Both the position numbers and the translations under genes were made by a program. DNA of 64,000 nt, taken from the NCBI RefSeq assembly GCF_036588685.1, contig NC_086375.1, positions 13,826,001 through 13,890,000 of the forward strand. The letters run 5' to 3'. The stretch comes from Mytilus trossulus (taxonomy: Eukaryota). The notes beneath the pieces are model-generated. The model was not told the origin of the DNA. It saw only the letters and a list, made by a program, of their open reading frames with translations, and did not search any database. Below are positions 9,361 to 62,044 of this stretch, in pieces; the first letter of the stretch is position 1, and the number at the start of each line of letters is the position of its first letter.

Positions 9361-10398
9361 CAGTCTAAAAGTATTTTACTGGGGATTGTTACATGTATTT
9401 TCCATTTCTAAGCTTGAATTTTCAAGTTACCTCACAGAGTTCATAGACAAAAGGAATTTACTTCCACTTGAATCAATATTAAGTTTTCTTAAATAATTGA
9501 TCCTGTGTTCAGATATTTTAGTGAGTCCTAGCCAAACTTACTAGAGGCTCTAAAGAGCTGTACCGGTCACTTACATCTTCAACAATAGCCATTTTGTGGT
9601 AAAAATCATCATGAAAAGGCAATAGCTCTATAAAGAGTTAACTGACAATTTCAGTCATGTTGACATATATGTAGATCTTTCCCTGTTAATCATTTTTGCT
9701 ATCTAAAGTGGTTATTTTGACATGCTATTTTCAACTTAAAGGCAGTTTTCATTTCTGTATTCACTAATAATCTAGATATATATATTTATGTATAGATCCA
9801 AATATGTATCACTTTTAAATATGAATTGAATTGGAATTAATACTTTTCTTCTTCGTTATTTTGTTAGCTACACGTGTACATGTATTCTCTCATGATGTTT
9901 ATACAAAACTGATTCTAAATTAATATTTTTTAAGTGATTAATAGAAAAAAACCTGTGAAAATTGTTTTCATTTTTTGTACAAAAAGTTCTTTTAATTTGT
10001 TACAAAAACTCTCAATTTAAAAATAAATGGTAAGTACTTCAAGTACATATTAGTCAAATCAAATGTATGTTCATAAATAAACTGTTGAATCAATTACTAA
10101 AAATGAAATAAACAATTCTATTAAAGTGTCCAATATATTGGTTATTTTATAATTTCCCTGTGTACATCCCTTCCTGTCAAAATGATCATGGTAAGAATTT
10201 TCAGTTAATTCAATTGCAAATCTATTTAAATTATTAGAATTTCAATTTTTTTGAAAATTTTAGAAGGGTTATAAGGGCAGGGTTGTGTGTGACTGGGCAA
10301 ATAATTTCTTTGGATAAAATACATATCTCTTAACAAAAACTATATTTTTGTGTGGTTGGCAAAATTTTAAACAAGGATCAAAATGGAAATTATATATA

Positions 10399-14257: not shown

Positions 14258-15961
14258 ATGGCCTCATCTGTCAATCACCTTTGCACAATTTGCCATGATG
14301 ATGGAATCTCCAATTCAGCAGTCACATGGTGCACAGAATGTGAAGTTTTTTTTTGTGGAGGTTGTGAAAAACATCACAGTAAGTCCAGACTGTCCCAAAA
14401 TCATAAAACCATGTCAGCTGAAGATTACCAAAAGTTACCTACATTCATGCAAGAAATAAGTAGCCAGTGCAAAGACCACAAGAAGAAGTTTGAACTGTAT
14501 TGTTCTTTCCATACCTGTCCATGTTGTGTCCAGTGCATCACTGATAAACATAATAAATGTCAAGACATGAAACCATTGTCAGATATCCTACAGAAAGTCA
14601 AATCATCTGCCTCAGTGCTACTTTTTGAAAAAGATTTGACGAATGTGAGGGAAAACTTAGATACAGCCATAAAGTATCTGAAAACCAAAATGAGTACCAT
14701 CAATACTAAAAAAACAAAAGCTGTTGAGGATATTAGGAATGTGAGAGAGTCTATCAATGATTACTTAAACAAATTAGAGCAAGACATACTGAATGATTTA
14801 GAGTCAAAACATTCAAAGCTACAATCAAACATGGCCACTATCGTGCAACAAATGGAACAGCAAGCCAGTCAAATAGACCAAATGCAGAACCAGTTCACCA
14901 AAATGACGCAATATGCCACAGAGTTACAGATGTATATTGGTCTAAGAGAAATTGAGAAAACTACAACACAGGGAGCAAAATATTTAGAAGATTTAGAAAA
15001 TGGAGACCACGTTAGTGAAAAAAATCTAGAGGTCAACATTTCATCAGCTCTACAATCAATTTTACAAGATATCAAATCATTTGGAGATATTAATATTAAT
15101 ACCACCTCTTCTACACTTCGACTAAAGACCAGCAGAAAAGATCAAGCCCAGCACTTGGTTCCAAACGTTCCTGTTATTGAACAAATTAAGCCATCCCTAT
15201 TGACAAGACTAACAAGTACAATAGATATGAAGTTGAATATATGGGCCTGTCTTATCTTACCTGATGGTGAATCTATAACACTTGATCGCAATAAAAAACA
15301 ACTACTGCTGTTCAGTAAAGATGGCATCTTCATCAGAAAAGTAATTTCATTCACAAAGCATCCATGGGGTGCTTGCTTTGTCAGAAATTATACAGTGGCT
15401 GTCACATTAAGATCAGCAAACCAGATAGCTTTGGTAGATGTAAAAAAGGATAGAATTATTCAAACAATCAAACTTTCGCATGATTGTTTTGGAGTGGCAA
15501 GTGATGGTAAAACTTTGGTCATCAGTAGTGGTGGCAGCCAGTGTACTACAGTGAATCTGAATGACATGTCTCATACAATCTTAGAAGGAATGGGACTTGG
15601 ATCTATTGCATTATTCCAAAGAAATATATATGGTATCAATTACCATGAAAACAAAGTATGCTGTTATAAAATTACTGGAGAACCTTTGTGGACATATCAG
15701 AACCCAGACATTGCCACACCACGAGGACTTTCATTAGATAAGAATGGCTTTGTTTATATAGCTTCCAATGGAAACAACAGTATCATGGTAGTATCACCAG
15801 ATGGTAAAACCTGTAAGAAAATACTATCAGAGGCTGATGGAATCAAAGATCCATGGCAAATAGATATTAACAGAGAAACAGGAATGATGATAGTGTCGAG
15901 TAGAATGAGTGATAATGACAGTGTTACAGACTATGAAACAGCTTTTGTGTATACAATTTAA
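14258..15961 (+). CDS. RING-less TRIM-like protein, copy 2, 567 aa
   Basis: Intact ORF with the same domain order as copy 1. Acceptor TTATTTCAG (AG 14238-14239) lies just before the ATG. Confidence 0.95.
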   Translation: MASSVNHLCTICHDDGISNSAVTWCTECEVFFCGGCEKHHSKSRLSQNHKTMSAEDYQKLPTFMQEISSQCKDHKKKFELYCSFHTCPCCVQCITDKHNKCQDMKPLSDILQKVKSSASVLLFEKDLTNVRENLDTAIKYLKTKMSTINTKKTKAVEDIRNVRESINDYLNKLEQDILNDLESKHSKLQSNMATIVQQMEQQASQIDQMQNQFTKMTQYATELQMYIGLREIEKTTTQGAKYLEDLENGDHVSEKNLEVNISSALQSILQDIKSFGDININTTSSTLRLKTSRKDQAQHLVPNVPVIEQIKPSLLTRLTSTIDMKLNIWACLILPDGESITLDRNKKQLLLFSKDGIFIRKVISFTKHPWGACFVRNYTVAVTLRSANQIALVDVKKDRIIQTIKLSHDCFGVASDGKTLVISSGGSQCTTVNLNDMSHTILEGMGLGSIALFQRNIYGINYHENKVCCYKITGEPLWTYQNPDIATPRGLSLDKNGFVYIASNGNNSIMVVSPDGKTCKKILSEADGIKDPWQIDINRETGMMIVSSRMSDNDSVTDYETAFVYTI

Positions 15962-18334
15962 AATGAAATTTATTTTAAAAAATAGATCTGTGCATAGTGT
16001 TAAATGATATCAAAGACATTATATCTTCCTTATTAAGGTGTCCACATAATTAACACTAAATACATATTTGTTTACTTTTCAAATGTTTTTAAATTTGTTT
16101 TCAAATCAATTTATAAATAAAAGTATTAAAAAGAAAGCAGTAATTGAAAAATGAAAATAGCATGTATCGGAAGCAATTTTAGTTTCCACCTTCATTAGAA
16201 CCAAACAATTTGAATGTCAAAGATAAAAAAATCAACACTTGAAAACTTAGCTATATGACCAAAGGACCCATAAAAGGAATAGCCAAATAAACCTCAAGTC
16301 AACTGTGCATTGCGGGGAGAAACTTATAAAGTTTCTTGATAATTCATCAGTTAATCAATGAAAACCTCAACAAGAGGCTCCTTAAAGATCCTCCATTGTC
16401 ACCGGGATTTTTTTTGTCTACACCTCACATAAATGAATATTTTGCATATATACATTTGTAATTTGTAAATTTATCAGATCAGTTCTGCCAAATATTATTT
16501 GATTATGAAAAAATTAACATTTTAAATTGAATCTTGTGATATGTCAGAATTTGATACATTATAACTTTTGAAAATTTAATAACAACATACATGAACATTG
16601 CTGCATTGTTAAACCATAACCACCAACCTTTGCATTAAATGAATTTTAAGAATATTTGGTAAATTCAGACACTTTTCATATTCTAATACCAAGGGAGCTA
16701 AATCAATTCATCATGATCATACAAGAAAAAGTTGATTTTTTTTTAGCAATCCTGTGACATTTTATAATGATGCTTGCCATGTTTCAATTAAATCAAATAT
16801 GTGGCATAAGAATCTGAATGGAGATAACTGTACCTTTAGTTGCTAGGTAACAGTAAAATCTATGTTTCTAGCTTCTGAATTGCTAATTTTTAACCTGTTT
16901 TAGCTGAACCAAATTATTATAGATGCTATTTGAGGCATCAAACATGAAGAAATAAATTTGAAAGGGGTATAAAAAAATGGCACATATATATATATGCACA
17001 CTGTCAACACAATTTGTTTTTTTTATGAATGAGTTACACCAGTTTACTGCACTTCAGATGACATCCTCAAACAATATGTTCACACTGTGAAATTAAATAA
17101 CACAAGCATACTGACAATATAATATGTATGAAAACTTAGTCCAAATAATGATGATGTCTTAGTTACAAAGCTATTTAAATTTGGAATGGCATCACAGAAA
17201 AGAATTAAAGTAGCCTTGCAAGTCGTCATAAATTATTTGGTCTTGGACTAACATTTCTAATGCACTAAATTACTAATGGACTAGCTATAAACTATAACAT
17301 TTCCCGCATTTTTCTAAAACTGCCTACTAGTAACCCCCTTTTCGTTTGTTTATTGTTATTAAAAGTCCGACTCTCTGAGTCTCTGATGAACCTAACTTTT
17401 GGTACCATTTTTATGTTAGGAGAAATTTTATTTCCCGATAGAATATACCTGTTAAATGATAAAATTGTAATTCAATAAATAAACGATTTTCTGACGGTAA
17501 CTGGTCGACCAGTAATGTTTGCGTCTATGAGAATTAACTTTTAATTGATACTTTTCCATTTTATACATTGCCATGATTTGTGTTTACTTTATCTCAACTT
17601 TTTAACAGGATAACAAAGTTTTACCTGTTGATGAAATTTCTCACCTGCAAATTCTCTCCTTTCTAGCCTTCTCGACAGAAGTGTGGGCTATACTAAAACT
17701 CTGTCCAAAAACCGGTGTTCAGTTCCGGTCGGTTCTGCAAAACAGGACTTTCCTTAGAAATTTGTTTTGAAAGGAAAGGATATTAATTGTTACTTTATAA
17801 GCTTTTGTCAGTTCACACATTGCTTCCATTTTTAATTTCTTTGGTGCGTGTCCTTCATTTGATCCAACAAATCATGAATATCATGACCCTTCTGAAAATG
17901 GTGCGGATGTTTAACTCCTAGAGGCTAGATCATCCTACTGTGCCAAACGAAGGTCAATCTTTAAAATACAACTAATTCATGCATTATTTTACAAATTACA
18001 GCATTAATGATACACTTGTACCCTGTATTTTTATATTCTGTAGGTAAAATTGGCATACCATGATATATTTATGATCCAGACAAAAGTTTCCATTCTGGGA
18101 CTATTTTGTAGATTTAGCCATATATACTATATAGTTCCACCAATTAAATTTCGAATCCATATTGAACCATAGAAAAATGGGTTTGAATCGACCTGGAAAC
18201 GACCAGGTCATGATTCTGTAATGAGGAGTACTAAAATTGCATATACATGCTTAAATTCACACCCCGTTCATTTCCTGCTTATAAATACGTACATTTTATA
18301 ATTACTATTAATGTTTCAACTCTCATAAGATTTG

Positions 18335-20059: not shown

Positions 20060-21166
20060 GAATTTTCCGTACATTTTATGGACACCATTACGAATTGATA
20101 GATCCATACATTGTGTCTGTGTCTAAACTAGCTAAAAAAAAATTGATCACGTCTTAGAATATGGTTTACCATTTACCTTGTCTGGGTTTTTATAAAGTAC
20201 CGAACATAACCTATTCCAGAATATGAATCTTTTGCTGAGTGTGAATTCGCATTGTTATGAGATGTGACACGGGGTTTGTTTATCCAACATTCATTTATTT
20301 AGTTATGATATTGTTTTTGTAATTGTGATCGGATGTTGTTAAATGTATTATCGTTTGTAGTTATTGTAATTCTACTTTTTTAATTTTCTATTCGTTTGTA
20401 AAAGTAAAGATAATTAATCAACCAGTTCATTAATAAGATTTTAGTTTAATGCAACTATATATATGTGCACGATTTATTTGTTTTATATTTTTGATTTAGA
20501 AGAAATACCGAAATAGCTAGATAAAACAATTACTTATCTAACTACTAACACAATTCTATATAAATATTCTTATAATTGTTATAAAATACATCAAATCACT
20601 TAATAAAAAACTATTCTGGATTTATATCCAATTTTTAGAAATTTACATGTGACGTATTCACTTTTGTTGCGTTGATCCAGTCGTGTGACGTTTCTGTTGT
20701 GCTGTTTTTATGTGTAGTCCGAGATTTTTTATGTGTTCGTTTTTATTCTTTGGTTAGCATGTCGAAATGTACTATTGTAATGTTTATTTGTGTATTTTTC
20801 TGTTCTGCATGTTCTTGCATTGATTTGTACTGTATTCCTGTCATGTAATGTTGTCATTTTAGTGTTATATTTAACATTGCCATAAAAGTGCAAGCTTGGC
20901 TATCCACAAAGCCAGGTTCAACCCACCATCTTTTCTTAAAATGTTCTGTAACAAGTCAGGAAAATGGCAATTGTTATCTTATAGTTCGTTTCTGTGTGTG
21001 TTGCATTGTCATTTTATTTGTTGCACTTCTGTGTTTCTGTTGTTTCGTTGTTTTCATCTTATAGTTGATGTGTTTCCCTCGGTTTAAGTTTGAAACCCGG
21101 ATTTGTTTTCTCTCAATAGATTTATGACTTTCGAACAGTGGTATAGACTACTGTTGCCTTTATTTA
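20060..21166 (+). mobile_element. Decayed Penelope-derived element with twister-like motif (20876-20971); inverted partial copy at ~51500-52240
   Basis: Starts with an FYGHHYELID-coding remnant and ends with the family tail ...CTACTGTTGCCTTTATTT. 20060-20720 matches the reverse complement of 51500-52240. Confidence 0.6.
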
Positions 21167-21372
21167 AATTAAAGTTGAACTTGTTTCTCGTCTCTAGATA
21201 AAACATTTGCCTATATTATAATAAATGGTATGAGCCGCTTATCCTACCAATCTTCAAGATCTTTGTATCTTAATTTCAACATCAGATAATCTTGCATACA
21301 CTTCACTGTTCAAGCAGTAATGCTTGAAGGCATATACTATTTAATAAGATGATGGAAAGAGAGTCTGTAAAA

Positions 21373-21813: not shown

Positions 21814-22340
21814 TATGTTTATCGGAATTATCTGATTTTGTCTAATGCTTAGTTCGTGTCTGTGTGTGTTACATTTTAATGTTGTGCCGTTGTTCTCCTC
21901 TTATATTTAATGCGTTTCCCTCAGTTTTAGATTGTAAACCGGATTTGTTTTTTTTCTATCGATTTATGAGTTTCGAACAGCGGTATACTACTGTTGCCTT
22001 TATTTATTTGCCCTTTACATACGTCAATTCCTGCAAAGTTATCTAAAGGAGGGGCGAAAGATACCAATAGAACAGTCTTACTTATAAATCGAAAACAAAC
22101 TGACAAAGCCATGGCTAAAAAGATAAAGACAAACAGACAAATAATGATTGTATGTGCTTTTTATACAAATCTTCAACTACTAGAATTATGAAGAATTCCA
22201 TCGGTAAAGTTTCGGATAAGAAAAGAGATACATGCAATATTTTTTTCGACTTTTGTTGCGTTTCAGCAAGCCAAGGATGTATGCAAAATTTAAGCAAACT
22301 CTGTGATATAGTGGTATAGCCCATTTACTGTTCCTTCAAC

Positions 22341-24110
22341 TTAAATTTTATAAACAAAAGCTGTTTCATAGTCTGAAACACTGTCATCATCACTCTTTCT
22401 ACTTGACACTATCATTATTCCTGTTTCTCTGTTGATATTTATTTGCCATGGATCTTTGATTCCATCAGATCCTGACAATATTCTCTTACATGTTCTGCCA
22501 TCTGGTGATACTACCACGATACTGTTGTTTCCATTGGAAGCTATATAAACAAAGCCGTTCTTGTCTAATGAAAGTCCTCTTGGTTTGGCAACGTCTGAGT
22601 TCTGATATGTCCACAAAGGTTCTCCAGTAATTCTATAACAGCTGACTTTGTTTTCATGATAATTGATACCATAGATATTTCCTTGGAATAATGCAATAGG
22701 TCCCACTCCTTCCATTCCTTCTAAGATGGTATGAGACATGTCATTCAGATTCACTGTAGTACATTGGCTGCCAGCACTGGTGATCACCAAAGCTTTACCA
22801 TCACCTGCTACTCCATAACCTTCATGAGAAAGTTTAATTGTTTGAATAATTTTATTCTTTTCAACATCAACCAAAGCTATCTGGTTTGCTGATCTTAATG
22901 TAACAGCCACTGTATAATTTCTGACAAAGCAAACATCACAAGGATTCTTTGAGAATGTAAATACATTTCTGATGAAGATGCCATCGTTACTGAATAGCAC
23001 TAGTTGTTTTTTGTTGTTATCAAGTATTATAATTCTGCTATCAGGTAATATATGACAGGCCCATATATTTAACTTCATATCTTTTGGACTTGTTAGTCTT
23101 GTCAACAAGGATGGCTTTATTTGTTCAATTCCAGGAACTTCTGGAACCAAGTGCTGGGCTTGATTCTGTAGTCTTGTCAACAAGGATGGCTTTATTTGGT
23201 CAATTCCAGGAACTTCTGGAACCAAGTTCTGGGCTTGATTCTTTCTTTCGGTCTTTAATCGAAGTGTAGAAGATGTGGTATTGATATTAATATCTCCAAA
23301 TGATTTCACATCTTGTAAAAATGATTGAAGAGCAGATGAAATGTTGACCTCTAGATTCTTTTCTGTGAAGTGTCCTGCACTCTCTAAATCTCCTATATAT
23401 TTTGCAGTTTTCTCAATTTCCTTAAGACCAATATACATCTGTAGCTCTGTTGCATGTTGTACCAGATTGGTAAACTGACTCTGCATTTGGTCTATCTGAC
23501 TGGCTCCCTGTTCCATTTGTTGCAGGATAGTGGCCATGTTTGCTCTCAGTTTTGAATGTTTAGACTCTAAGTCATTAAGTATGTTTTGCTCTAATTTGTT
23601 TAAGTAATCATTGATCGACTTCCTCATATAACTGATTTCCTCAATGGCTTTGGTTTTCTGAATATTGATGGTGCTGATTCTGGTTTTCAGGTACATAATG
23701 GCTGTATCTAAGTTTTCCTTTACATTTTTCAAATCTTTTTCAAAAAGTTGAACAGAAGCAGATGCTTTTACTTGCTGTAGGGTATCAGACAAGTGTTTCA
23801 TGTCTTGGCATTTTTTATGTTTATCAGTGACACACTCTACACAGCATGGACAGGCATGGAAAGAACAGTAAAATTCAATCATCGTATTGTGGTCTCTGCA
23901 CTGACTACTTATTTGTTGCATGAATGTAGGTAACTTTTTGTAATTGTCAGCTGACATGGTTTTATGATGTTTAGACAGTCCTGACTTGCTGTGAGTTTTT
24001 TCACAGTCTCCACAAAAGAAAACTTCACATTCTGTACACCACGTGACTGCTGTATTAGAGATTCCATCATATTCACAAATTGTACAAAAGTGCTTGACTG
24101 ATGAGGCCAT
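22341..24110 (-). CDS. RING-less TRIM-like protein, copy 3, 589 aa, with an in-frame 75-bp internal duplication
   Basis: Intact ORF; acceptor TTATTTCAG (AG at 24130-24129). NQAQxLVPEVPGIxQIKPSLLTRL occurs twice (23094-23242). Confidence 0.95.
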   Translation of the reverse strand: MASSVKHFCTICEYDGISNTAVTWCTECEVFFCGDCEKTHSKSGLSKHHKTMSADNYKKLPTFMQQISSQCRDHNTMIEFYCSFHACPCCVECVTDKHKKCQDMKHLSDTLQQVKASASVQLFEKDLKNVKENLDTAIMYLKTRISTINIQKTKAIEEISYMRKSINDYLNKLEQNILNDLESKHSKLRANMATILQQMEQGASQIDQMQSQFTNLVQHATELQMYIGLKEIEKTAKYIGDLESAGHFTEKNLEVNISSALQSFLQDVKSFGDININTTSSTLRLKTERKNQAQNLVPEVPGIDQIKPSLLTRLQNQAQHLVPEVPGIEQIKPSLLTRLTSPKDMKLNIWACHILPDSRIIILDNNKKQLVLFSNDGIFIRNVFTFSKNPCDVCFVRNYTVAVTLRSANQIALVDVEKNKIIQTIKLSHEGYGVAGDGKALVITSAGSQCTTVNLNDMSHTILEGMEGVGPIALFQGNIYGINYHENKVSCYRITGEPLWTYQNSDVAKPRGLSLDKNGFVYIASNGNNSIVVVSPDGRTCKRILSGSDGIKDPWQININRETGIMIVSSRKSDDDSVSDYETAFVYKI

Positions 24111-24198
24111 TACTGTTTATCTTTAAATCTGAAATAAAGTGAGAAAAAAATTTCAGAAATGAATTATTCAGTTATACATAAAACAGTGCATTACTAAA

Positions 24199-29200: not shown

Positions 29201-30291
29201 ATAACTTTTGTTTTTGATCTATCATGTTAAAACAAATATAATTTCTTTAAATCAAATTGTGGTTTCAACATGTTCGAGAAATAAAAAGAAGAATGAAATT
29301 CTTATAACTACTTTTTAGTGTTTTTAGTGTCTTATCCTCATGAAAGTTATTAAGTATATTTCTCAGGACAGACTTTGTATTGATATCAGAGTTTAATTCC
29401 AACATATTTTTTTTCAAAGGCAGACAATTCAATTCTTTGTTTGTATTTGTAATGTGTGTATTAAAGAGAGGTGTGACAAAAATTTAAAAAGAAAATGAAC
29501 TGAAAAAAACAAAAAGTTTTGCTCGATGGAGGTGCCCAGGATCCATTGATTCAATTGGATGTTGAGTAATAATAAACTATAGAAAACTTTTTTTCACAAA
29601 ACTAAAATAAAATGGGAATTATGTCAATAGATGGAATAGAAAATATATAATTAATCTAGGTTCTGTTCATTTGCTGTTTAGGATTAGATATAGGAAGATG
29701 TGGTGTGAGTGCCAATGAGACAACTCTCCATCCAAATAACAATTTATAAAAGTAAACCATTATAGGTCAATGAACGGCCGTAAACACGGAGCTTTGGCTT
29801 ACACCGAACAATAAGCTATAATTGCCCCCAAAATTACTAGTGTTCAAACGAGAAAGCCAACGGTCTAATCTATATAAAAAAAACTACATTTGTGTCTTTC
29901 TACATTGTACCTGTTTTAAGGTACTCATTGAGAAATATGGACATTTAGAAACCAAACTAGCCCCTTTCATGCCCAGTTGACTTTATGTTGATTTTACTAG
30001 TCATGAGTCATTCGGTCTTAAAGCTTTGTGGTATTGATATATCATTGTCATTCAAATGTTTGGCTAAAATGATGGTTGATACTGAAAATGCACAGTATTT
30101 TTTTTTTTTTTAATTTCTGTTTTCATTTTCTATTTGAAATTGATTTTTATGAAAAGTGAACCAACATGTATTCCTATGATAAAAGATGTACTACTAGATG
30201 CCTTTATGAGGAGGATATAATGTCCTTGATATCATTTATCACTATGTACATATATCCTTCTATTCAAAAATAAAATGAAATAAGATGATAC

Positions 30292-31979
30292 TCAAATTTT
30301 ATATACAAAAGCTGTATAATTGTTATCATCACTTGTTTTACTTGACACTATCATCATTCCTGTTTCTCTGTTGATATCTATTGCCCATGGATCTTTGATT
30401 CCATCCTTCTCTGACAGTATTGTTTTACACGTTTTACCATCTGGTGATACTACCATGATACTGTTGTTTCCATTGGAAGCTATATAAACAAAGCCATTCT
30501 TGTCTAAAGAAAGACCCTTTGGTTCGGTAATGTCTTGGCTCTGATATGTCCAGAGAGGCCCTCCTGTACTTTTATAGCAGCAGACATTGTTTTGAGAGGA
30601 ATATATGCCATATATATTTCCTTGGAAAAGTGCAATAGGTCCCAGTCCTCCCATTCCTTCTAAGATGGTATGAGACATGTAATTCAGATTTATTTTAGTA
30701 CTCTGGCTGTTACCACCACTGATGATTAAAGTTTCACCCTCACTTGCCACTCCGGTACAACAATGAGGAAGTTTAATTGTTTGAAGAATTTTATTTTCTT
30801 TTACATCAACCAGTACTGTCTGGTAGGCGTATCCTAGTGTGACAGCCACTGCATTTTTTCTGACAAAGCAAGCATCCATGGGATATCCTATAAATGTAAC
30901 TACTTTTCTAACGAAGATGCCATCACTACTGAACAGCACTATTTGTTTTTGTAATAGTCAAGTATTATAAAAGTACCATCTGGTAGTATTAGACATGCAT
31001 GTATATCTAAATGCTTCATATCTTCTGGAAGTGCCAGTGTTGTCAACACGTTTGGCTTTATTTTTTCTATGCCAGGAACTTTTGGAACCAAGTGCTGAGC
31101 TTGATCTTTTCTTACAGCATTTATTTTTAGTGAAGAAGATATGGTATTAATATTAATATCTCCAAATGATTTGACATTTTGAAATATTGATTGAAGAGCA
31201 GATGAAATGTTCACCTCTAGATTCTTTTCTTCAGCACTTTCTAAATCTTCAGAATATTTTGTCGCTTGTGATGCTATTTTCTCAATTTCTCTCAAACCAA
31301 TATACATCTGCAGCTCTGTAGCATATTGCGTCATTTTGGTAAACTGGCTCTGCATTAGGTCTATTTGACTGGCTTGGTGTTCCATTTGTTGAACGAGAGT
31401 GTCCATGTTTGATTTAAGCTTTGAATGTTTAGAATCTAAGTCATTAAGTAGGTCTTGTTCCAATTTGTTTAAATAATCATTGATCAACTTCCTCATATAG
31501 CAGATTTCCTCAGTGGCTTTGGATTTCTGAGTATTGATAGTACTAATCTTGTTTTTCATATACTTTATGGCTGTATCTAAGTTTTCCTTCGCATCCTTTA
31601 AATCTTTTTCAAAAAGTTGAACCGAGGCCGATGATTTGACTTGCTTTAGGATATCAGACAAGGGTTTCATTTCATGACATTTCGAATGTTTATCAGTGAT
31701 GCACTGGACACAGCATGGACTGGCATGGAAAGGACAGTAAAGTTCAATTTTTTTCTTGTGGTCTTTGCATTGGCTACTTATTTCTTGCATGAATGTAGGT
31801 AACTTTCGGTAATCTTCAGTTGACATGGTTTTATGATTCGTAGACAGATGGAACTTACTGTGTGGTTTTTCACAGTCTCTACAAAAGAAAACCGCGCATT
31901 CTGTGCACCATATGACTGCTGGGTTGAATATCCCATCATCATGGCAAATTGTACAAAGGTTCTTGACTGATGAGGCCAT
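30292..31979 (-). pseudogene. TRIM-like copy 4, split by a 1-bp deletion in a homopolymer (pseudogene or assembly error; 562 aa if repaired)
   Basis: Two adjacent ORFs together give the full protein. An A5 run (T at 30946-30950) reads YYKNK* where one more A gives YYKKQIVLF, matching paralogues. Acceptor AG at 32007-32006. Confidence 0.88.
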
Positions 31980-32763
31980 TATACTTTTCTCTCTATTCTT
32001 TATATCTGAAATGAAAGGGGGAAAGTCTTTAATTTGAATTTATTCATCAGTTATTACCGAAAATGTTGAACCAATTTAAATGTATTTATACTATAGTTTT
32101 CTTTCATTCAAAGACCAATTACGACTTCTTTAAAAATTCATTTATTTATTCATTATCAGCTGATTGCAAATTATAGCTTTTTGGCAACATTTGTTTATCT
32201 ACTAATTAAAAAAGGTTTTATGGTAAGGTTAACTTGTTTCAGTTATAGTTAAACACCTAAGGATAGGTGTGTCTGGATAAGATTCCCAGTCGTCCAGAGG
32301 CCAGGGGTTTCTTATCTAGACACGTAGTATCTCAAGGTGTATAACTAGCATATTCCCTAAGGTAAACCCTGTATTTGCTAACATAGGTTTTTAAATGAAA
32401 AAGAACGGAAAGCATATTTCTTGACAATATCAAACTTTGATTTATAAGATTTTTTTATTATTTTTACATGAAACCCCACTTGACATCTTCTTTCAAACTT
32501 TGACAAGTGAGTAGATTTTAGAAATGTCGAAGTTGCTGTTTTGCATATGATTGTTAAACGCATGCGCTAATATGGAATAGCAGGCGAAGGTTGACTGTTT
32601 CGTGCATTATTTTTACAAAACAAAATACAACCTGCTCTTTGTATGAAATTGTTAATATGGGCGGGGACATGACGAACAACATTTTGAGTCAGGCATTGAA
32701 TTTGGTAGAAAAAACAAAAGATAAAGACTAAATTATAATTCAAAGTTCTTATACATGGGTCAT

Positions 32764-33161
32764 GAAACGCGCGTCTGGCGTACTAAGTTATAATCCTGAT
32801 AACTATTAAGACCACTGGGTCGATGCCTCTGCTGGTGGACGTTTCGTCCCCGAGGGTATTACCAGCCCAGTAGTCAGCACTTCGGTGTTGACATGAATAT
32901 CAATTATGTGGTCATTTTTTATAAATTTCCTGTTTATAAAACTTTGAACTGTTCGAAAAACTAAAGATTTTCTTATCCCAGGCATAGATTACCTTAGCCG
33001 TATTTGGCACAACTTTTTGGAATTTTGGATCCTCAATGCTCTTCAACTTTGCATTTGCTTGGCTTTATAACTATTTTGATATGAGCGTCACTGATGAGTC
33101 TTATGAAGACGAAACGCGCGTCTGGCGTACTAAATTATAATCCTGGTACCTTTGATAACTA
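32764..33161 (+). mobile_element. Greater-than-unit-length hammerhead retrozyme (monomer 347 nt, cleavage site to cleavage site 32776-33122)
   Basis: GAAACGCGCGTCTGGCGTACTAA occurs at 32764 and 33111, with a complete hammerhead at the 3' junction. Confidence 0.9.
33083..33128 (+). ncRNA. Type-I hammerhead ribozyme, canonical core
   Basis: Stem I CGTCA/TGGCG; CTGATGA; stem II GTCT-TATGA-AGAC; GAAA; palindromic CGCGCG stem III; GUC cleavage after 33122. Confidence 0.93.
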
Positions 33162-36100
33162 ATTATACTTGTTTAATTAAGGTTATCATAAATGCATTTT
33201 TCTCATGTTACGGTTTAAAAAAAAAAGCACCCCCTTTTTTCTAAATAGTAAACAAACATGCATATTCGGACATACTGAGGGAAAGATGTGTCGGGTTTAG
33301 ACACGCTCAACATACAAAAATACAGATTGAATATTAAGGAACTCCCTTTAGGAGGAAATCCGGGTGGGGGGAGCAGGATTACAACTCCCTCTTCTTTTTT
33401 TCTTTAAAAAAAAAGATGCTTAAGAACAGAGACATATTACGGGAACATACATTTTATCTACAAACAAAGGAGAATTTAAAGAGGTTTTTATATGACAGTT
33501 GTTGTCCATTTGTTTGATTCGTTTTATCTTTGATTTTGCCATTTTATTAGGGACTTTCCGTTTTGTGATGTTCTCTGAAAAATCTAGAGATTTGTAGGAT
33601 AACAAATTAAAATAACTTTTTGTATGAAAAATAAAAATTGCCCCTTTGAGATATCTCGCGTCACTATTTCTTCAACCTTAAATTAGTTCACGTAGTTTTT
33701 AAGCTTTAAGTTTTTTTAAACATTTATTAGAATACGAATAAAAGGTGGCGTTGGGTAAAACGTCATTGAAAGAGCAACCTAACGATCAAAATAACTATGA
33801 TCAATCTGTTCTGTTCTGATATATACCCCCTTTTTTAGAGGCGCATTCCACTTATGGGATGAGCATACTTAACCGAAACTGAGAAACTGAGAACTGAAAA
33901 AGTAGATATCTTAATATTTACAATATGATGAATTTTAATATGATGTTATCCGTTCGTTTGAAGTTATTTATCTTTTGATTTTTCCATTTCATAAGGGACA
34001 TTCTGTTATTGATTATAAAAAATACCAGGACTAATTTGGTACAACCGCCTGGAAAGCCTACATATGACTCAGTGGCACTTAAATCAACATATAATTACCA
34101 CATATCAGCTTAAGGATTACTCTAACCGTTTGAAGGTTTGGACTATGTATCTGATACCTACACTGCACAAAAATCATTTACTGTCATTTCATCTCGGCCT
34201 CTAGTAAGTGTTTTACAACTTATTTGTCATATAAAATATTGACTAGTCTAAAATTTGTATAAGATAATATCTCCCATCTTTTTTTCTATGTATTTGTTTT
34301 TAGTTGATATCTGTTAAGTTTATAAAAATACCAGGATTAATTTGGAACAACCGCCGCCCATTTAGTCTACATGAGACTCAGTGGCACTCAAATCAACATA
34401 TAATTACAACAATTCAGCTAAACGACTACACCGAACATTTGAAGGTCCATACTATATATAAGCTACCTATACTACACACAAACCGATTACTTTCGTTTCA
34501 TCTCGGCCTCTAGTAAGTGTTTTCAATGTATTTCGGTTGTTTCCTGTAATTAGTTAATACTTCAGTTTTATCATATATCTTTTGTATAGTCATTTTATAA
34601 AATTTACTGTTTGCAAAAGTATAAATTATTCTAAATAATAGGGATGTTCTGGTACCGTTTTTTTGTAGTATACCGCTGTTCAAAACTCATAAATCAATGG
34701 ACAAAAAACAAAATCGGGGTAACAAACTAAAACTGAGGGAAACGCATTAAATATAAGAGAACAACGACACAACATTAAAATGTAGCACACACAGAAACGG
34801 ACTAAGCATTAGACAAAATCCTGTGAGAATAACAAACATAACCAACGAATAATAACTACTCAACAGTACCTAAGTTCGTTTTCATGCAGTTCATATAATG
34901 TGATTTACACATATAAACGAAGTTGTAATATTCACACATCAACATATTTGTCAAGTGGGTTTTACCGGTGTACGGAAAAATTTATAATGAGAATTTAAGG
35001 AACCATTCATTTATTAGAATTTGCATCAACAGCCTTTATCAATTCCAAGTTTTAGTCTCAAACGCAAAGTCTTCGTTTCACTATCATCTAGAGCTATAAT
35101 CCCCACATTCAAACTGCTAATGATTTTTCGACTAATGCTCGACTTAGAATCTCTTTAATGTTTTAAGTAAGTATTTTATCAAATACAAATTTTAAACATT
35201 CTTATTTACTAGTACATTTGTACTTTATTATGCATAGTTGCATAGATTGCCAAAAAAAATTACAAAAAATGTAACATTATTTAAATGTCTGCAACTCATA
35301 TAAAAAAATTGTATACAAACGCATGTCGCTTTATTTATGTTTTTAATTGCTAAGACAAAGTATTTAAATTGAAGTTAAGTGTCCCATATATTGTACATTT
35401 AAATTCCAACTGCATATTCCTGTCTGTCAAAAAGTTCACGATAAGAATATTCAGACATTTTAATTTTTCAAATACAATTTTTATAACTTAAAATTCAGCA
35501 TTATAAAAGAAAGCAACAGTCCATATTTGCCAAAAAAAAGAGTCTTGATTTTGATAGAAAGTTTTAAACATAATAGATTTCATAGTGGTGGAAAACAGAG
35601 GAACCGGAGAATTAACACTTTCTTAATATTAATTGCTAATTTATACACAGTCCAAAATTTGATTGATATGATATCGTCACTCTTTTATTTTATTTATGTA
35701 TTTTGAATATCTGTAAAAATAATTAATGATACCAAGTTTAATTTGGTACAAAAGCCGTGCTTTTGTCGACATAACTCTCATCGAGGCTCAAATCAGCATA
35801 AACCGGGGAATAACAACATCCCAGCTTAAGTTTGGGGTTCGTGTTTTTTATTCTTTAGTTTTCTATGTTGTGTCGTGTGTACTATTGTTTGTCTGTTTGT
35901 CTTTTTTCATTTTTAGCCATGGCGTTGTCAGTCTGTTTTAGATTTATGAGTTTGACTGTCCCTTTGGTATCTTTCGTCCCTCTTTTGTAAGTCCTCCTCT
36001 GATCATCTGCAGGTCCGTAATATGTTAATGTTTCCTATACTACATAAACATCGATAACTTTCGCTTCATCTTGGCCACTAGTGAGTGTTTTACAACAAAT

Positions 36101-43419: not shown

Positions 43420-44720
43420 AATAAAATTGAGAATGGAAATGGGGAATGTGTCAAAGAGACAACAACCCGACCAATTAAAAAAACAACAACAGAAGGTCAC
43501 CAACAGGTCTTCAATGTAGCGAGAAATTCCCGCACCCGGAGGCGTCCTTCAGCTGGCCCCTAAACAAATATATACTAGTTCAGTGATAATGAACGCCATA
43601 CTAATTTCCAAATTGTACACAAGAAACTAAAATTAAAATAATACAAGACTAACAAAGGCCAGAGGCTCCTGACTTGGGACAGGCGCAAATATGCGGCGGG
43701 GTTAAACATGTTTGTGAGATCTCAACCCTCCACTTATACCTCTAACCAATGTAGAAAAGTAAAAGCATAACAATACGCACATTAAAAATCAGTTCAAGAG
43801 AAGTCCGAGTCTGATGTCAGAAGATGTAACCAAAGAAAATAAACAAAATGACAATAATACATAAATAACAACAGACTACTAGCAGTTAACTGACATGCCA
43901 GCTTCAGACTTCAATTAAACTGACTGAAAGATTATGATTTCATCATATGAACATCAGGCACAATCCTTCCCGTTAGGGGTTTAGTATCATACCATCATAA
44001 CATCTATGAGAAGAACATAACCCGTATCATGCCAACAACTGTTTTTAGAATAAATGTGTTTAGTTCCGATGCAAAGACCTTATCAGTGATTCAATATTAA
44101 CGCCAAAATATGCAATCTTTAATGACTTGACAACAGTATCGTAAGTATATCCCTTCTTAATAAGTCTATTCAAAGGTTTTGTAAGTTTATGAGGTGAATA
44201 CTGACACCTTTGTGCTTTATAAAGAATATTTCCATAAAAAAATGGATGTGAAATACCTGAACGTATAAGAAGTCTCGGCTGCATGTTGAGCTACATTTAC
44301 GAATGATGTCTTTATACCGATGATAATATTTAGTAAATGTTTTGACTAGTTTGTGATATCGAAAACCCTGGTGTAATAATTTTTCAGTAATACATACATT
44401 TCTCTCGTTAAAATCTAAAACATTGTTACATACACGAGCGAATCGTACAAGTTGAGATATATAAACACCGTAAGATGGTGACAAGGGAACGTCACCATCT
44501 AAAAACGGATAATTAACGATAGGAAATGAAAAATCATCCCTTTTATCATAAATTTTAGTATTCAGCTTTCCGTTAGTGATATAAATATCAAGATCGAGGA
44601 AAGGGCAGTGGTCATTGTTAGTATTAGCTTTATTTAAAGTAAGTTCACCAGGATAAATTTCATTAATATACATACTGAAGTCGTCATTATTGAGAGCCAA
44701 AATATCATCCAAATATCAAA
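43420..44720 (-). mobile_element. 5'-truncated Penelope-like retroelement: frameshifted RT C-terminal half (44060-44712) and ~640-bp 3' tail containing a twister motif
   Basis: (Y)LDDILALNN...IYPGELTL...PFLDLDI...TKIYDKRDDFSFPIVNYP...SYGVYISQLVRFAR. The ORF ends with no C-terminal GIY-YIG domain. Confidence 0.8.
43657..43747 (-). ncRNA. Type-P5 twister-like ribozyme (UCCCAAG family)
   Basis: Minus strand GGTTAGAGGT ata AGTG GAGG gttgagatctcacaaacatgtt TAA CCCC GC CGCA-tatt-TGCG CCTG TCCCAAG T CAGG a GCCTCTGGCC. This matches the twister signature UAA-N4-GCC...G-CCNG-UCCCAAG-Y-CNGG...GAGG. P2 is imperfect in this copy. Confidence 0.8.
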
Positions 44721-46943: not shown

Positions 46944-47169
46944 AATATTTATCAAAAGTACCAGGATTATAATTTAGTACGACAGACGCGCGTTTCGTCT
47001 ACATAAGACTCATCAGTGACGCTCATATCAAAATATTTATAGAGCCAAACAAGTACAAAATTGAAGAGCATTGGGGATCCAAATTCCAAATACGGCTAAG
47101 GTGATCTATACCTGGGATAAGAAAATCCTTAGTTTATTTCGAAAAATTCAAAGATTTGTAAACAGGAAA
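46944..47169 (-). mobile_element. 5'-truncated retrozyme with hammerhead (46980-47024), inserted inside a plus-strand twister-like motif (~46900-47217)
   Basis: Canonical core CTGATGA...GAAACGCGCGTC on the minus strand. The flanks rejoin as ...AAACCAGGTT|CAACCCAC...GTCTGTACCAAGTCCGG. Confidence 0.85.
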
Positions 47170-47382
47170 CCAACCCACAATTGTCTTTGAAAAATGTCTG
47201 TACCAAGTCCGGAATATAAAAGGTGTGTTTCACGCGTCCCGTTAGTTGAATACGCTTGATTTCATACTTTTACTTTCTTTATACGGTGTGATATTTTTGA
47301 GTCAAACTATTCCTTGTAACTGCATGCAGTTTTATAAGACAAAATAACTTTCATACATTTCAGAAGGAAAGATAAAAGTACA

Positions 47383-49086
47383 ATGTCTTCATCGGCCAAG
47401 CACATTTGTACAATATGTCATTATGATGAAGTCCCGAAAACAGCAGTCACGTGGTGCACAGAATGTGAAGTTTTCTTTTGCGGAGACTGTGAAAAACCTC
47501 ATAAAAAATTAAGATTGACCATAAATCATAAGACCATATCATCTCAAGATTATCAAAAGTTACCGACATTCATACAAGAAATAAGCAGTCAGTGCAGAGA
47601 CCACAATAAGAACTTTGAACGTTACTGTTCTGTTCATGCATGTCCCTGCTGTGATCAATGCATCACTGATAAACACCAGGCATGTGGAAACATGCAACTG
47701 CTATCAGACGCTATTAAGCAAGTAAAAAATTCTTTCTCAGTTGAGTTTTATAAAAACGAATTGATGGACGTAAATGAAAACTTAAATAAAGCCATAAAAT
47801 ACCTGACAGCGAGGATCAGTACAGCCAATTCCCAGAAAACTGAGGCATTTGATGAAATCCTGTATACTCGAAAGTCTATCGATGACTACTTTGATAAAAT
47901 AGAGCAGAAAGTACTCGACGAACTAGAGAATAAACATTTGGAGCTGAAATTAAACATGGCCTCCATCGTACAACAAATGGAACAGCGACTGCATCAGATA
48001 GAAAAAATTCAGAGCGAGTTTACCAAAATGACACAATCTGCAACTGCGTTAGAACTGTATTTTGGTCTGAAGGAAATTGAAAAAACTACATCAGAAGCCG
48101 CAAAATACATTTCAGATTTAAAGGAAAGTGGCGATCACTTCAGTGAAAAGAATTTAGAGGTTAAAATTTCATCTGATCTTCTATCAAGTATTCAAGATGT
48201 CAAATCATTTGGAGATATTAATATCAATACGACGTCTTCTACTCTCCTTGTCAAGACCGGAAGAAAGAATCAAGCACTATGCGTTCCTAGAAGTGATCGA
48301 ATTAAACCAGCTTTGCTAAAGAGACTGACAATTCCCCAAAATATGAAGTTTTTGAATATACTGGCGTGCTTAATATTGTCTGATGGTAAGGTAATAATTC
48401 TCGATTACAACAAAAAACAACTACTGCTTTTTAGTGACGCTGGCTTCTTCGTTAAAGAAGTATTTACATTCAGAGAATATCCTCTCGATGCATGCTTTGT
48501 CATAGATAATACAGTGGCTGTCTTATTAGGATCAGCAAACAAGACAGCTCTGGTGGATGTTGAAGAGAAGACAATTATTGAAGAAGTTGATCTTTTTCAT
48601 TATTGTTATGGAGTAGCAAGTGATGGTAAAAACTTAATTATTAGCAGTGATAATAATAAGATTATCAAAGTGAATTTGGACGATATGTCTCAAACAATCT
48701 ATAAAAAAGGAGTGGAGGAACTATTTTATGTTTCGTTATTGCAAGGAATTATCAATGGTACCACGACCTTTCAAAACACAATCTGCTGCTATAAAAGTAC
48801 CGGGGAACCTCTCTGGACATTTCAGCGCCAAGACATTGACGTACCAGGACGACTTACATTAGACAAGAATGGCTATGTTTATATTGCTTCTTGTAGGAAC
48901 AACAGTATCGTGGTATTGTCACCAGATGGTAAAACCTGTAAGACAATACTATCAGAGGCTGATGGAATCAAATCTCCTTGGGCAATAGATATAAACAAAG
49001 AAAAGGGATTGATGGTGGTGTCCAGTTTTATGAGAGATAATAGACGTGATGCTTTCTATGATACAGCATTTATTTATAAAATTTAA
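47383..49086 (+). CDS. RING-less TRIM-like protein, copy 5 (most divergent full copy), 567 aa
   Basis: Intact ORF with both B-boxes conserved. Acceptor CATTTCAG (AG 47362-47363). Confidence 0.95.
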   Translation: MSSSAKHICTICHYDEVPKTAVTWCTECEVFFCGDCEKPHKKLRLTINHKTISSQDYQKLPTFIQEISSQCRDHNKNFERYCSVHACPCCDQCITDKHQACGNMQLLSDAIKQVKNSFSVEFYKNELMDVNENLNKAIKYLTARISTANSQKTEAFDEILYTRKSIDDYFDKIEQKVLDELENKHLELKLNMASIVQQMEQRLHQIEKIQSEFTKMTQSATALELYFGLKEIEKTTSEAAKYISDLKESGDHFSEKNLEVKISSDLLSSIQDVKSFGDININTTSSTLLVKTGRKNQALCVPRSDRIKPALLKRLTIPQNMKFLNILACLILSDGKVIILDYNKKQLLLFSDAGFFVKEVFTFREYPLDACFVIDNTVAVLLGSANKTALVDVEEKTIIEEVDLFHYCYGVASDGKNLIISSDNNKIIKVNLDDMSQTIYKKGVEELFYVSLLQGIINGTTTFQNTICCYKSTGEPLWTFQRQDIDVPGRLTLDKNGYVYIASCRNNSIVVLSPDGKTCKTILSEADGIKSPWAIDINKEKGLMVVSSFMRDNRRDAFYDTAFIYKI

Positions 49087-49093
49087 ATCGACC

Positions 49094-56920: not shown

Positions 56921-57845
56921 TCAATAAAAAAAATATACCATTCTTCGAAAAATCTTAAATCATCGTACAGGTTGACGTAATATCAACAAACATATTTCAC
57001 CCCGACACGTTCTGTATTTGTCTGTATCATGTTCGGTTCCTGTACCGTGGTTATCGTTGCTTCATGTCTGACAACTTCGTAAGTTATTTGTTATTTATAA
57101 GCCGTTATTTTTCTAATTTAATGTGTTCATTATGTGTTTTATTCGAGACCTTTTATAGCCGAATATTAAGTAATGGGTTTGCTTTCATTGTTGAAGACTG
57201 TACGGTTGCCAGAAGTTGATATATTTGACTCATTGGCAAATACACCAAATGTCCTTATATCTATATTTACATTAATCCCATTGATTTTACGCTTTCGTGA
57301 CTCTTCGGAAATTTTTGTCAATAGTTAAAAATAAGTATTTAAATTTCAATCAATAACTCCAGGTAAGTAAAGAAGTATCACAGATATATTGATATTTGAC
57401 TTCCATAAGCAAATTCCTTCCTGTCAAAATGGCCAGGTAAGAATGTTGGAGTAGTTCAACTATTTGTGTAAATAATTCATTAACCCTATTTAATATTCTG
57501 ATTACAGTACCATGAGAATGAAAAACCTTATAGTTCTTTACACAAGAAATTAGAAAGATGATAAAGTTCACAGTTTGTGATGAAAAAATGTGTGTAAACA
57601 TGCAAATTACACAGTGAGATTTAACACTTTTTAAAGGAGAGATTCAAAACGTTATCATGTTTAATGATACCAATGATTTGTTTAGTCTCACATTGGTGAT
57701 ACACACTGACAAAATAAACGAAAAACTACACATGAGATTATAAAATTAAAAACAAACACTGATAACTTAAAAAAGATCGAAACACACAATCATATTTGTA
57801 CACACAAGCTACTTTAGTTGCGTTTCTGTATATATCTGAAGTTAA

Positions 57846-58290
57846 AAAAGGCAACAGTAGTATACCGCTATTCGAAATTCATACATCGATTGAGGAAAAA
57901 ACAAATTCGGGTTACAAACTAAAACTGAGGAAAACATTTAATATAAGAGGTGAACAACGAAACAACAGAAACACAACGCTAAAATGCAACACAGAAACGA
58001 ACTATAATATAACAATGGCCATTTTCTTGACTTGGTACAGGACATTTAAAAAAAAATGGTGGGTTGAACTTGGTTTTGTGTCTAGCAAAATCTCCGCTTT
58101 TATGGCAATGTTAAATATAACATTAAAATTACAACATTACATGACAGGACTAAAATAAAAAAATAAATGGGAGAACATACAGGACAGAGAAACACACAAA
58201 TACTAGCTTTCAAAAGGTACCAGGCTTATAATTTAATACATCAGACGTGCGTTTCGTCTATATAAGACTCATCAGTGACGCTCAGATAAA
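57846..58290 (-). mobile_element. Non-coding retroposon carrying a hammerhead (58239-58283) followed by a twister-like motif (~58016-58110)
   Basis: Minus strand order: GAGCGTCACTGATGAGTCTTATATAGACGAAACGCACGTC, ~130 nt, twister-like ...CAACCCACC...GTCCTGTACCAAGTCAAG, then the family tail GCGGTATACTACTGTTGCC. Confidence 0.75.
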
Positions 58291-60502: not shown

Positions 60503-61420
60503 ATTGTGAAAAAACTCAAAGGAATTCCATACGTGACAGAACTAAAACCCATTAGCTCAATATCACCAAAAGATACATTTATCATGGAAGTAATATGCAA
60601 TCCACCCAATGACCAGCAATGTGTTCCAAATGTTTGTGAAATTGATCAGATTAAGCCATCATTATTGAGACGACTTACTATTCCAAAAGATATCAAGTCT
60701 TTAGGAATAATATGGTCCTGTCTGGTATTACCCGATGGTAAATCTATAATAATTCATCACGACAAAAAACGTCTACATCTGTTCAGTAATGAAGGAATAT
60801 ATATCAGAAAGATTATAACATTCAAAGAATATCCAAATACTGCTTGCTTTGTCAGTAATAGTACAGTTGCTGTCACATTAGAAGCTAACCAGATAGCACT
60901 TGTAGATGTAGAAAAAAACAAAATAATGAATACAACAAAACTTTCTCATAAATGTTATGGAGTAGCGAGTGATGGTAAAACTTTGGTCATCAGTAGTGAT
61001 GACAAGTGCACTAGCGTGAATCTGATTGACATGTCTCATACAATTTTAGAAGGCGTGGTTAAACTGAAAAGTATTTCATTATTCCAAGGAAATATATATG
61101 GTACCGTTTTCTATGAAGACCAAGTAAGGTGCTATACAAGTACTGGAGACGTACTTTGGACATTTCAGAGCCATGATATTGACTATTCAGGAGGACTTGC
61201 GATAGACCAAAATGGCTTTGTCTTTATATCTTCTTATGAAAAGAACAAAATAGTGGTAGTATCACCAGATGGTCAAACCAGTTAGACAGTCTTATCAGAA
61301 GCTGATGGAATCAAATCTCCTGTAGCAATAGACATTAACAGAGAAACAGGATTGATGTTAGTGTCAAGTGATATAAGTGCTGACAGTTGTGATCAAACAG
61401 GTTTTGCTTATAAAATCTAA
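60503..61420 (+). pseudogene. Propeller-only exon of a TRIM-related gene with one in-frame TAG (61283-61285)
   Basis: Acceptor TTTTAG at 60501-60502, ~35 non-homologous codons, then homology from QQCVPNV..IDQIKPSLL. After the TAG (Lys codon in paralogues) the frame continues cleanly for 44 codons to ...GFAYKI* at 61420. Confidence 0.8.
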
Positions 61421-62044
61421 ACAATGCCATGCTGGTTTTTTTCATTTTATATATAAAGGTATAACTGTATATTTTAGAGAACGGCCATTTACCTTCAAAA
61501 GGGTGAAAATGTTTTTTTCCTTAAAATATATTCTGATCCCAAATTTGATGAAAAAAGAATGTGTCCATAATACATGATGCCCAACTCGCCTTTTCTATGT
61601 TCAAATTCTTTGACCGGAAGTTGGACAGACGAAAAACATAATGCCCCTTGTTGGGCATGATAGTCATGCTGATGACAAAAATATTCTGAATCAAGATGTT
61701 CCCAATTGTTAAATTTAGAAGAAGAAAAAAAATAATTGATAGCGTTGAAAAACTAAGATAAGAAGATATGACTCAGACAAGACATCCTTCACACCTCCCC
61801 TTTTGGAGTTAAATGGATGCTCCCTAAAGATAGGCACTAGATGCTTCTTATTAGATGTCTTCATCCTATTATTATTTGAAGAAAAAAATGATCATTTTGT
61901 ACATGCTATGGAAAATTCCAAAATTACTTCACATAAATAAAATAGAGTTGTTTTAAGTAGTTTAAATTCAAATAACGCTTTATTAAGTTTACGCATCTGA
62001 ACCACTTCCTTGGATTACAAATTAATAGGAATGCTCTAACTTAA

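Follow-up and report, generated by a model that had tools for sequence, protein, structure and literature searches.

At one locus of the Mytilus trossulus genome, two classes of self-cleaving RNA appear to stand in series on the same strand, a hammerhead and then a twister. The question that this arrangement raises is whether the two were selected as a pair that cuts an RNA out between them or were brought together by an insertion. The locus lies in a stretch of 64,000 nucleotides (GCF_036588685.1, contig NC_086375.1, positions 13,826,001 to 13,890,000 of the forward strand), here called the window, and coordinates are counted from its first letter. An initial annotation, made from the letters alone, had described one short element on the minus strand carrying both ribozymes. 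We followed it up across the genome (1.3 Gb, 541 contigs); papers are cited by accession for the accessible parts of their text. The features on which the argument draws are listed here, with A, B, C and E denoting Naiad families and D a free repeat.

57843 to 58290, minus strand: 5′-truncated 3′ end (a piece of 3′ untranslated region [UTR] or pLTR) of a Naiad-type Penelope-like element, family A, as judged from the common 3′ end and variable 5′ ends among copies.
57843 to 57868, minus strand: 3′ terminus shared by several Naiad families; in tandem copies, as at the L355 junction, the 5′ leader of the next unit adjoins it.
58238 to 58281, minus strand: minimal type I hammerhead whose core is canonical and whose GUC cut falls at 58244/58243 (Rfam RF00163).
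58203 to 58290, minus strand: likely remnant of an insert of about 300 nt from a free, retrozyme-like hammerhead repeat (family D, unit of 347 to 355 nt), 78% identical to D over about 300 nt and absent from family E.
58202 to 58210, minus strand: approximate junction between the insert and the Naiad body, from blastn bounds.
58012 to 58111, minus strand: twister-like fold in type-P5 order, damaged in this copy; predicted from column conservation (50 copies), pair counts (12 representatives), and a covariance model.
58067 to 58089, minus strand: two tandem palindromes in the place of P1 (a, 58089 to 58079; b, 58075 to 58067), both broken in this copy; six self-complementary centers occur across families.
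20066 to 21170, plus strand: comparison copy of family E, a Naiad 3′ UTR with twister and tail and without the hammerhead insert.
32764 to 33162, plus strand: comparison copy of the free hammerhead repeat D, with a period of 347 nt, the likely source of the insert.
43654 to 43751, minus strand: comparison copy of the family C twister, with a canonical GAGGG/UCCC pseudoknot, downstream of the reverse transcriptase (RT) fragment at 44715.

Judged by its relatives, the stretch at 57843 to 58290 is the 5′-truncated 3′ end of a Naiad-type Penelope-like element (PLE). Family A copies have a fixed 3′ end and scattered 5′ ends, some of them over 1.8 kb upstream and within an RT; in five long copies this upstream part codes for a decayed RT of the PLE type. 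The element is thus not the short one first described, since its long copies continue into a Naiad RT. The tail gave five matches at three or fewer mismatches versus none in 100 shuffles, and blastn recovered all eight of the other copies that the initial annotation had named as ending in it. A search with the RT as the query led to a young sub-family of family A (median identity, 98%) with DKA and CxC motifs. At one locus, a young relative of family A forms a tandem (period 4765) with a 928-aa frame, an N-terminal GIY-YIG domain, and the twister motif once per repeat. The full Naiad motif set (N-terminal GIY-YIG, CxC, DKA, and C-terminal RT) is present in this relative and in family C; these motifs were read by eye, because Pfam assigned none of three scanned proteins to an RT or GIY-YIG family. 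The window copy itself is noncoding. Family A also follows the Naiad pattern of 5′ truncation, fixed 3′ ends, and partial tandems (pLTRs). The motif set, the truncation, and the partial tandems are those described for the Naiad clade (PMC8557442), and the 3′ end of family B reads like that of the Naiad_Mgal consensus from the same source. In the accessible text of that paper, Naiads are described as lacking canonical hammerheads and the word “twister” has zero occurrences, whereas here the pLTR carries a twister-like fold and one lineage gained a hammerhead. We consider it fairly probable that the locus as a whole is the dead, 5′-truncated 3′ end of a Naiad-type PLE, whose repeated end holds a conserved twister-like fold predicted to self-cleave, likely as a dimer, and whose hammerhead was likely acquired once, as a passenger insert, and has since decayed.

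The hammerhead and the twister-like motif both lie, in that order, where the initial annotation had placed them. In the hammerhead, stem I pairs 58281-58276 with 58243-58238 on the minus strand, CUGAUGA occupies 58275-58269, and GAAA occupies 58255-58252; the CUGANGA, GAAA, and NUH core elements are all present, as are stems I and II. Its Rfam Hammerhead_1 (RF00163) score is 30.5 bits (E = 0.0012), short of the gathering score, which is 34. PLE hammerheads cleave as dimers via a palindrome (PMC6765202), and the pLTRs studied here resemble those elements in the position of the ribozyme, in a palindrome that replaces a stable helix, and in tandem copies that could serve as partners. They differ in that the dimer-type signature of Naiads is found on the twister, and the window hammerhead, itself of the minimal type I, is likely a passenger. 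Its stem III palindrome reads ACGCACGU versus ACGCGCGU in other hammerhead copies. This central G-to-A change would leave a dimer helix with central mismatches and so weaken it; the window copy thus departs from the palindromic stem III of dimer cleavage, and nonstandard pairs are flagged in its Rfam alignment.

The two motifs have fared very differently within the family. In family A, the core of the hammerhead remains canonical in 4 of 58 rows, two of them truncated inside it, and its A6 and G8 are kept in 16 and 8 of 50 copies, respectively, versus 50 of 50 for A+1 of the twister. In the youngest sub-family, 22 copies retain a hammerhead remnant, never with a canonical core, while 21 of 24 have an intact twister core. 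The initial annotation had made its reading depend on the conservation of both motifs; by these counts only the twister is conserved. The window copy belongs to a clade of seven copies, six of which keep G8 (support, 94/95; the bootstrap is not fully settled and the tree is midpoint rooted), so a lineage with both motifs did spread a little. This sub-lineage did at first carry both motifs intact and may have passed through transient double cleavage.

A visible junction separates the two motifs, contrary to the impression that the hammerhead runs into the twister body without an obvious one. At about 58210 to 58202, similarity to the free hammerhead repeat ends and similarity to a hammerhead-free family starts: with 58500 to 57700 as the query, D-like blastn matches end at query positions 283 to 310 and E-like matches begin at position 299. 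Sister family E lacks the hammerhead but closely resembles family A in its RT, 3′ UTR, twister, and tail. Between the blocks that A and E have in common lie about 420 nt in A versus about 125 nt in E, and about 300 nt of the A segment is repeat D at 78% identity. A sample of 1.06 Mb (the window and, at round coordinates, 100 stretches of 10 kb) contained 80 hammerhead-like and 66 twister-like matches, and only 5 pairs, the window’s included, had the family A spacing. In the genome-wide search that the initial annotation had proposed, the junction recurs: all of the best 40 of 9,911 candidates for a 455-nt junction query, the window’s own included, cover both motifs at 83 to 87% identity. When family A copies were chosen by their upstream sequence alone, 21 of 28 continued into the twister body. 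From these comparisons, the hammerhead likely entered a Naiad 3′ UTR once, as a passenger from a separate repeat, and insertion in A is likelier than loss in E, the direction being set by parsimony.

Repeat D itself has the form of a non-LTR retrozyme, which consists of tandem units of 170 to 400 nt with a hammerhead in each; its units are 347 and 355 nt long, and the window element has no such structure. Mussel non-LTR retrozymes are repeats of 350 to 390 bp with a type I hammerhead (PMC7229834), and D, with its unit of 347 to 355 nt and type I hammerhead, resembles them, the match being one of size and ribozyme type only; the window element differs in not being a tandem hammerhead repeat. 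D also has a 47-nt segment (81% identity) in common with the 5′ leader of a young A-type Naiad. Since the free repeat thus shares a Naiad leader, the Naiad RT likely copies it, and D fits a nonautonomous repeat of that kind. The same RT would likely have copied the free repeat and placed one copy in the 3′ UTR of a master element.

The shared leader would equally suit the opposite history, in which the hammerhead is native to the Naiad pLTR and this pLTR is the source of repeat D, so that A represents the ancestral state and the segment was lost from E; a derivation of retrozymes from PLE pLTRs has already been proposed (bioRxiv 10.64898/2026.07.22.740005). We think this history unlikely, because families B, C, and E all carry the twister with no hammerhead nearby and because the insert ends close to where free D copies end (mostly 26 to 37 nt past the hammerhead cut, by blast bounds). 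In the accessible supplement of PMC8557442, moreover, the one match to a 10-letter hammerhead core string falls in a non-bivalve Naiad.

Several smaller observations concern repeat D and its surroundings. The leader common to D (window 32764-33162) and the start of the young Naiad (L355:4557-4603) points to Naiads as the driver of the retrozyme-like repeat, and the L355:4557-4603 leader has a hammerhead-like GAAAC/CUGGUGA pattern on its opposite strand. In the young sub-family, 231 nt from the upstream part of the inserted repeat are duplicated in tandem (L355:3468-3939 and 8228-8699). At window positions 47150-47226, the 3′ half of a twister, beginning at the predicted cut, adjoins a repeat D copy on the opposite strand.

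The two cuts of the window copy are 178 nt apart. On this the initial annotation had based its main inference: the two ribozymes are a selected pair, and double cleavage releases a 178-nt RNA that is circularized by an RtcB-type ligase or else defines the ends of a transposition intermediate. The recurrence of the junction, the spacing of 177 to 178 nt, and the seven-copy clade, window copy included, that once had both motifs would all be expected of such a pair, and RtcB does circularize mussel retrozyme monomers in vitro (PMC7229834). We nevertheless regard it as highly improbable. The hammerhead core is degraded in nearly all copies, as counted above, and the copies bear no mark of the excised unit. 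Among 101 matches that cover the inter-cut segment in 1.99 Mb, not one has the two cuts as its bounds, no match in the same 1.99 Mb spans the circle junction with at least 20 nt on both sides, and the best 40 genome matches to the segment are all dispersed, with no two adjacent. Eleven apparent circle-junction matches were set aside as chance likeness to the hammerhead’s own sequence. The segment has no stable fold (z = 0.45).

RNA reads give a similar picture. The window copy and family C were compared with one contig run and with three raw RNA runs of the same species label, each sampled at about 6 in 100. The inter-cut segment has the lowest depth of the element in the three raw runs, on both strands, and no joint of 58066 to 58243 is among the RNA joints listed for them, in libraries that would sample small circles poorly. 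Reads from the hammerhead continue mainly into repeat D (764 to 1646 reads), which supplies most of them. The proposal of a circularizable 178-nt product thus finds no counterpart in copies or reads, and that of a transposition intermediate is not supported, since copy ends are not set by the cuts. It is unlikely that a double-cut RNA circle forms, given a hammerhead that is likely a passenger and has decayed in most examined copies. The series of two ribozymes is likely an inherited insertion, not a selected double cutter.

The twister-like fold, in contrast to the hammerhead, is the conserved part of the element. In twisters, A+1 acts as the general acid and a G as the general base, and the two pseudoknots are named T1 and T2, a usage that follows PMC11662667. 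In the window copy, P5 would pair 58111-58102 with 58022-58012 and P2 would pair 58097-58095 with 58063-58061; P3 occupies 58058-58043, and P4 with L4 occupies 58041-58026. The G-A-G-A-U strand lies at 58094-58090, T2 at 58060-58059, and the predicted cut at C58066/A58065, as in the initial annotation. The partial decay noted at first sight is real: one G of P2 is deleted, T1 has a mismatch at 58091, P4 has one at 58027, and both palindromes are broken. The T1 and P4 mismatches together with the P2 deletion leave the window twister probably weak or dead.

Comparison among copies supports the fold. A+1 is present in all 50 family A copies and A+2 in 46 of 50; both are invariant in 12 family representatives, as is the general-base G that opens the G-A-G-G-N strand (58094 in the window copy). 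These catalytic positions are kept across families and species. Among the 12 representatives, 88.4% of cells pair versus 73.2% after shuffling, a test that kinship inflates, and 29 to 44% in slid controls. Half of the pairs (14 of 28) change on both sides, in P5, P2, T2, P3, and P4; T2 is 95.8% paired, and P4 is 100% paired, with two of its four pairs changing on both sides. Weak points are the third T1 pair, which is U-U in 2 of 12, and P2, which has 4 bp in family C and 3 bp plus a bulge elsewhere, and whose first pair occurs in five types and is C-C in the youngest sub-family. Across 189 parsed matches, which represent few independent families, include some overlapping loci, and were admitted by the parser with three T2 dinucleotides only, T2 is CC/GG in 101, AC/GU in 51, GC/GU in 32, and mismatched in 5; T1 is GGU/ACC in 151, GGG/CCC in 32, and otherwise in 6.

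A covariance model of our own scores the motif at 58012 to 58111 at 68.3 bits with family A in its training set; built without family C, the model still detects family C, at 48.5 bits. Family C is the clearest case, with a textbook GAGGG strand, a UCCC-AA loop, and a 4-bp P2, and its tandems (periods 4016 and about 4007) have the twister motif in both pLTRs. Single-strand folding of family A copies did not produce the twister (z = 0.18 and 0.65); z was −4.2 and −2.3 for families B and C, respectively. Outside this genome, the motif was found near the 3′ end of 5 of 11 bivalve Naiad consensi (Naiad_Mgal, Bpla, Mphi, Scon, and Mmer) in the accessible supplement of PMC8557442, by string search and by eye, in a text where further instances may be hidden by line breaks. 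In metagenomes, a pattern scan returned 121 loci, most of which belong to a single repeat family from two data sets. An RT match lies within 1.5 kb upstream in 1 of the 121 (64 have at least 600 nt upstream), so the link to Naiads outside this genome rests on the published consensi. The same predicted fold thus occurs in other animals as well as in at least four Naiad families of this genome, both pseudoknots show compensatory changes, and the fold is the conserved part of the element, likely self-cutting.

Among the metagenome loci (L196-L316), an abundant short repeat from two data sets extends from just upstream of P5 to about 230 nt past the twister, with no RT nearby, possibly a nonautonomous twister element. 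L220 and L251 match the pattern without the fold.

With type-P5 twisters (Rfam clan CL00120), the fold has in common the N^AA cut strand, the G-A-G-G-N strand, an L4 of the form U-NCC-AA-GN, two pseudoknots, P2, P3, P4, and a closing P5. It differs in that two tandem palindromes replace P1, P2 mostly has three pairs and a bulged pyrimidine, T2 is AC/GU, GC/GU, or CC/GG, and Rfam models score below threshold. The Rfam twister models gave no match in the window at the gathering score, none in 14 family loci (E ≤ 10), and none in 6 loci (E ≤ 5); on family C there was one weak partial match (13.3 bits, E = 5.9; gathering score, 67.2). Because P1 is missing, the Rfam threshold is missed, and cleavage is a prediction, we regard the fold as one that works like a twister and do not file it as a member. 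P1 is reported to be dispensable in tested twisters, in which P2 is tolerant and the pseudoknots are sensitive to change (PMC11662667), so its absence lowers the case for membership and not the case for twister-like function.

Other placements were considered. A cut at Y^AA directly after palindrome a was rejected: the bases that follow cannot pair as P2, and family C fixes the register. A noncircular permutation is not needed, and none was found in the accessible text of PMC10085705. A hairpin-ribozyme tail and a Helentron-type terminal hairpin were dropped once the RT and the tandem structure appeared.

What stands in place of P1 bears on how the fold might act. Every family has two self-complementary tracts between the L1 strands, and P1 is absent. 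The first palindrome occurs with six different centers (CTAG, CATG, GCGC, GATC, TATA, and TGCA), all palindromic. In intact copies, the predicted self-duplex is worth −9 to −19 kcal/mol for the first palindrome and −4.5 to −8.8 kcal/mol for the second, and monomer hairpins are worth 0 to −2 kcal/mol; the window copy’s self-duplexes reach −5.2 and −0.5 kcal/mol. In all 10 copies folded, the G-A-G-G-U strand is also predicted to pair with palindrome b (−1.9 to −6.9 kcal/mol). Two palindromes in P1’s place suggest, on these modeled energies, cleavage as a dimer.

A true twister could instead cleave as a monomer, with the palindromes acting as small hairpins or through an inhibitory GGUU/AACC pairing that tunes its rate and with no need of dimers. 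The dispensability of P1 in tested twisters (PMC11662667) and the pairing of the G-A-G-G-U strand with palindrome b in every folded copy would both suit such a ribozyme. We doubt this account, since the loop centers of hairpins need no self-complementarity, yet all six different centers have it, and since the hairpins would be worth so little energy.

In the dimer reading, two twister copies in a tandem pLTR-ORF-pLTR transcript would pair via both palindromes and so hold together the strands that P1 normally holds, and in a monomer the second palindrome could sequester the G-A-G-G-U strand. Cleavage of the upstream copy at Y^AA would yield a unit RNA with an uncapped 5′-OH end some 400 to 700 nt before the ORF, the role proposed for hammerheads in other Penelope-like elements. 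This reading can be extended to a more general proposal, which we advance tentatively and with rather less than even confidence. Bivalve Naiads would use a dimer-dependent twister in their pLTRs where other PLEs use dimeric hammerheads; with two palindromes replacing P1, tandem pLTR-ORF-pLTR transcripts would cleave and monomers would stay off. Family A would then amount to a natural swap test, its master having gained a working hammerhead 178 nt upstream, lost it, and kept the twister.

Any such cleavage would probably be slow or partial, given that the site is read through in most inserted copies. The 5′ ends of copies show no enrichment at the twister cut: of about 60 targeted copies, 3 start no more than 4 nt from it, close to the local density. 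RT templates were thus mostly uncut there, in agreement with the Poseidon PLE of Anolis, for which hammerhead cleavage was not needed for insertion in vitro (PMC11167929). In the three raw RNA runs, whose libraries are fragmented and sample both strands, read ends do not pile up at the hammerhead or twister site, and family C gives the same picture, with read-through from host transcripts. The lack of a cleavage mark in copy ends and reads, together with insertion of Poseidon in vitro without a need for cleavage, would also be expected if the fold derived from a twister, no longer cleaved, and had been kept either to serve the Naiad RNP as a platform for dimerization or protein binding or to act in translation as an element before the ORF. 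A purely structural role, however, does not require A+1, A+2, and the G, all of which are kept across families and species, and we find this possibility decidedly unlikely. A fold that is predicted to cleave, if inefficiently, remains our preferred reading.

A twister at the end of a retrotransposon is already known from Perere-3 of Schistosoma, where it is proposed to make the RNA 5′ end and allow translation (PMC8501958), and the present motif resembles it in being a twister tied to a retrotransposon. Perere-3, however, is a non-LTR element with the ribozyme at its 5′ end, and target sequence completes its P1; the present host is a PLE, with the motif 150 to 420 nt inside the 3′ end. Ribozymes can start translation in viral UTRs (PMC13725137). 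Our literature search, with subscription journals and some supplements outside its reach, found no paper placing a twister in bivalves, in Naiads, or in other PLEs. Naiads, which dominate bivalve genomes, have been described as the PLE clade that thrives without a canonical hammerhead, which raises the question of what ribozymes do in these elements. A conserved twister-like fold in the corresponding position of the pLTR suggests a Naiad clade with a self-cleaving RNA of another class; if this is true, it would be a twister of dimer design that standard models have missed. The hammerhead-twister arrangement itself looks like an evolutionary accident, one that shows a retrozyme-like repeat riding on Naiad machinery, with later lineages keeping the twister and not the hammerhead. 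As far as the sequences indicate, then, the point of interest is the P1-less, palindrome-bearing twister-like fold conserved in bivalve Naiad pLTRs.

Other observations were made in the window and its relatives. Family C (window 43654-44715; L317 = G000:C8:27109000-27118999; L156-L175) is a young Naiad (99%) with three in-frame TGA codons at Cys-like positions, and its 3′ UTR contains a SECIS-like element (Rfam SECIS_1, 32 to 33 bits; gathering score, 35). It is likely, from these signals, a selenoprotein Naiad in a mussel-type genome; in the accessible text of PMC8557442, selenoprotein Naiads are listed from spiders and clams alone. At least three families are represented by further Naiad-type RT fragments at window positions 18235, 44715, and 45905, and L092 has, near 1002, a GIY-YIG-like fragment of another PLE. 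The window also holds six related intronless ORFs of up to about 590 aa (3159-5086, 14233-16310, 22335-24187, 29969-32039, 47338-49087, and 60503-61421), some of them broken, with a coiled part, a repeat-rich C terminus, and an N-terminal Cys/His-rich region that we take to be B-box-like. In L317, near 6939-9999, an LTR-retroelement-like pol adjoins the family C tandem.
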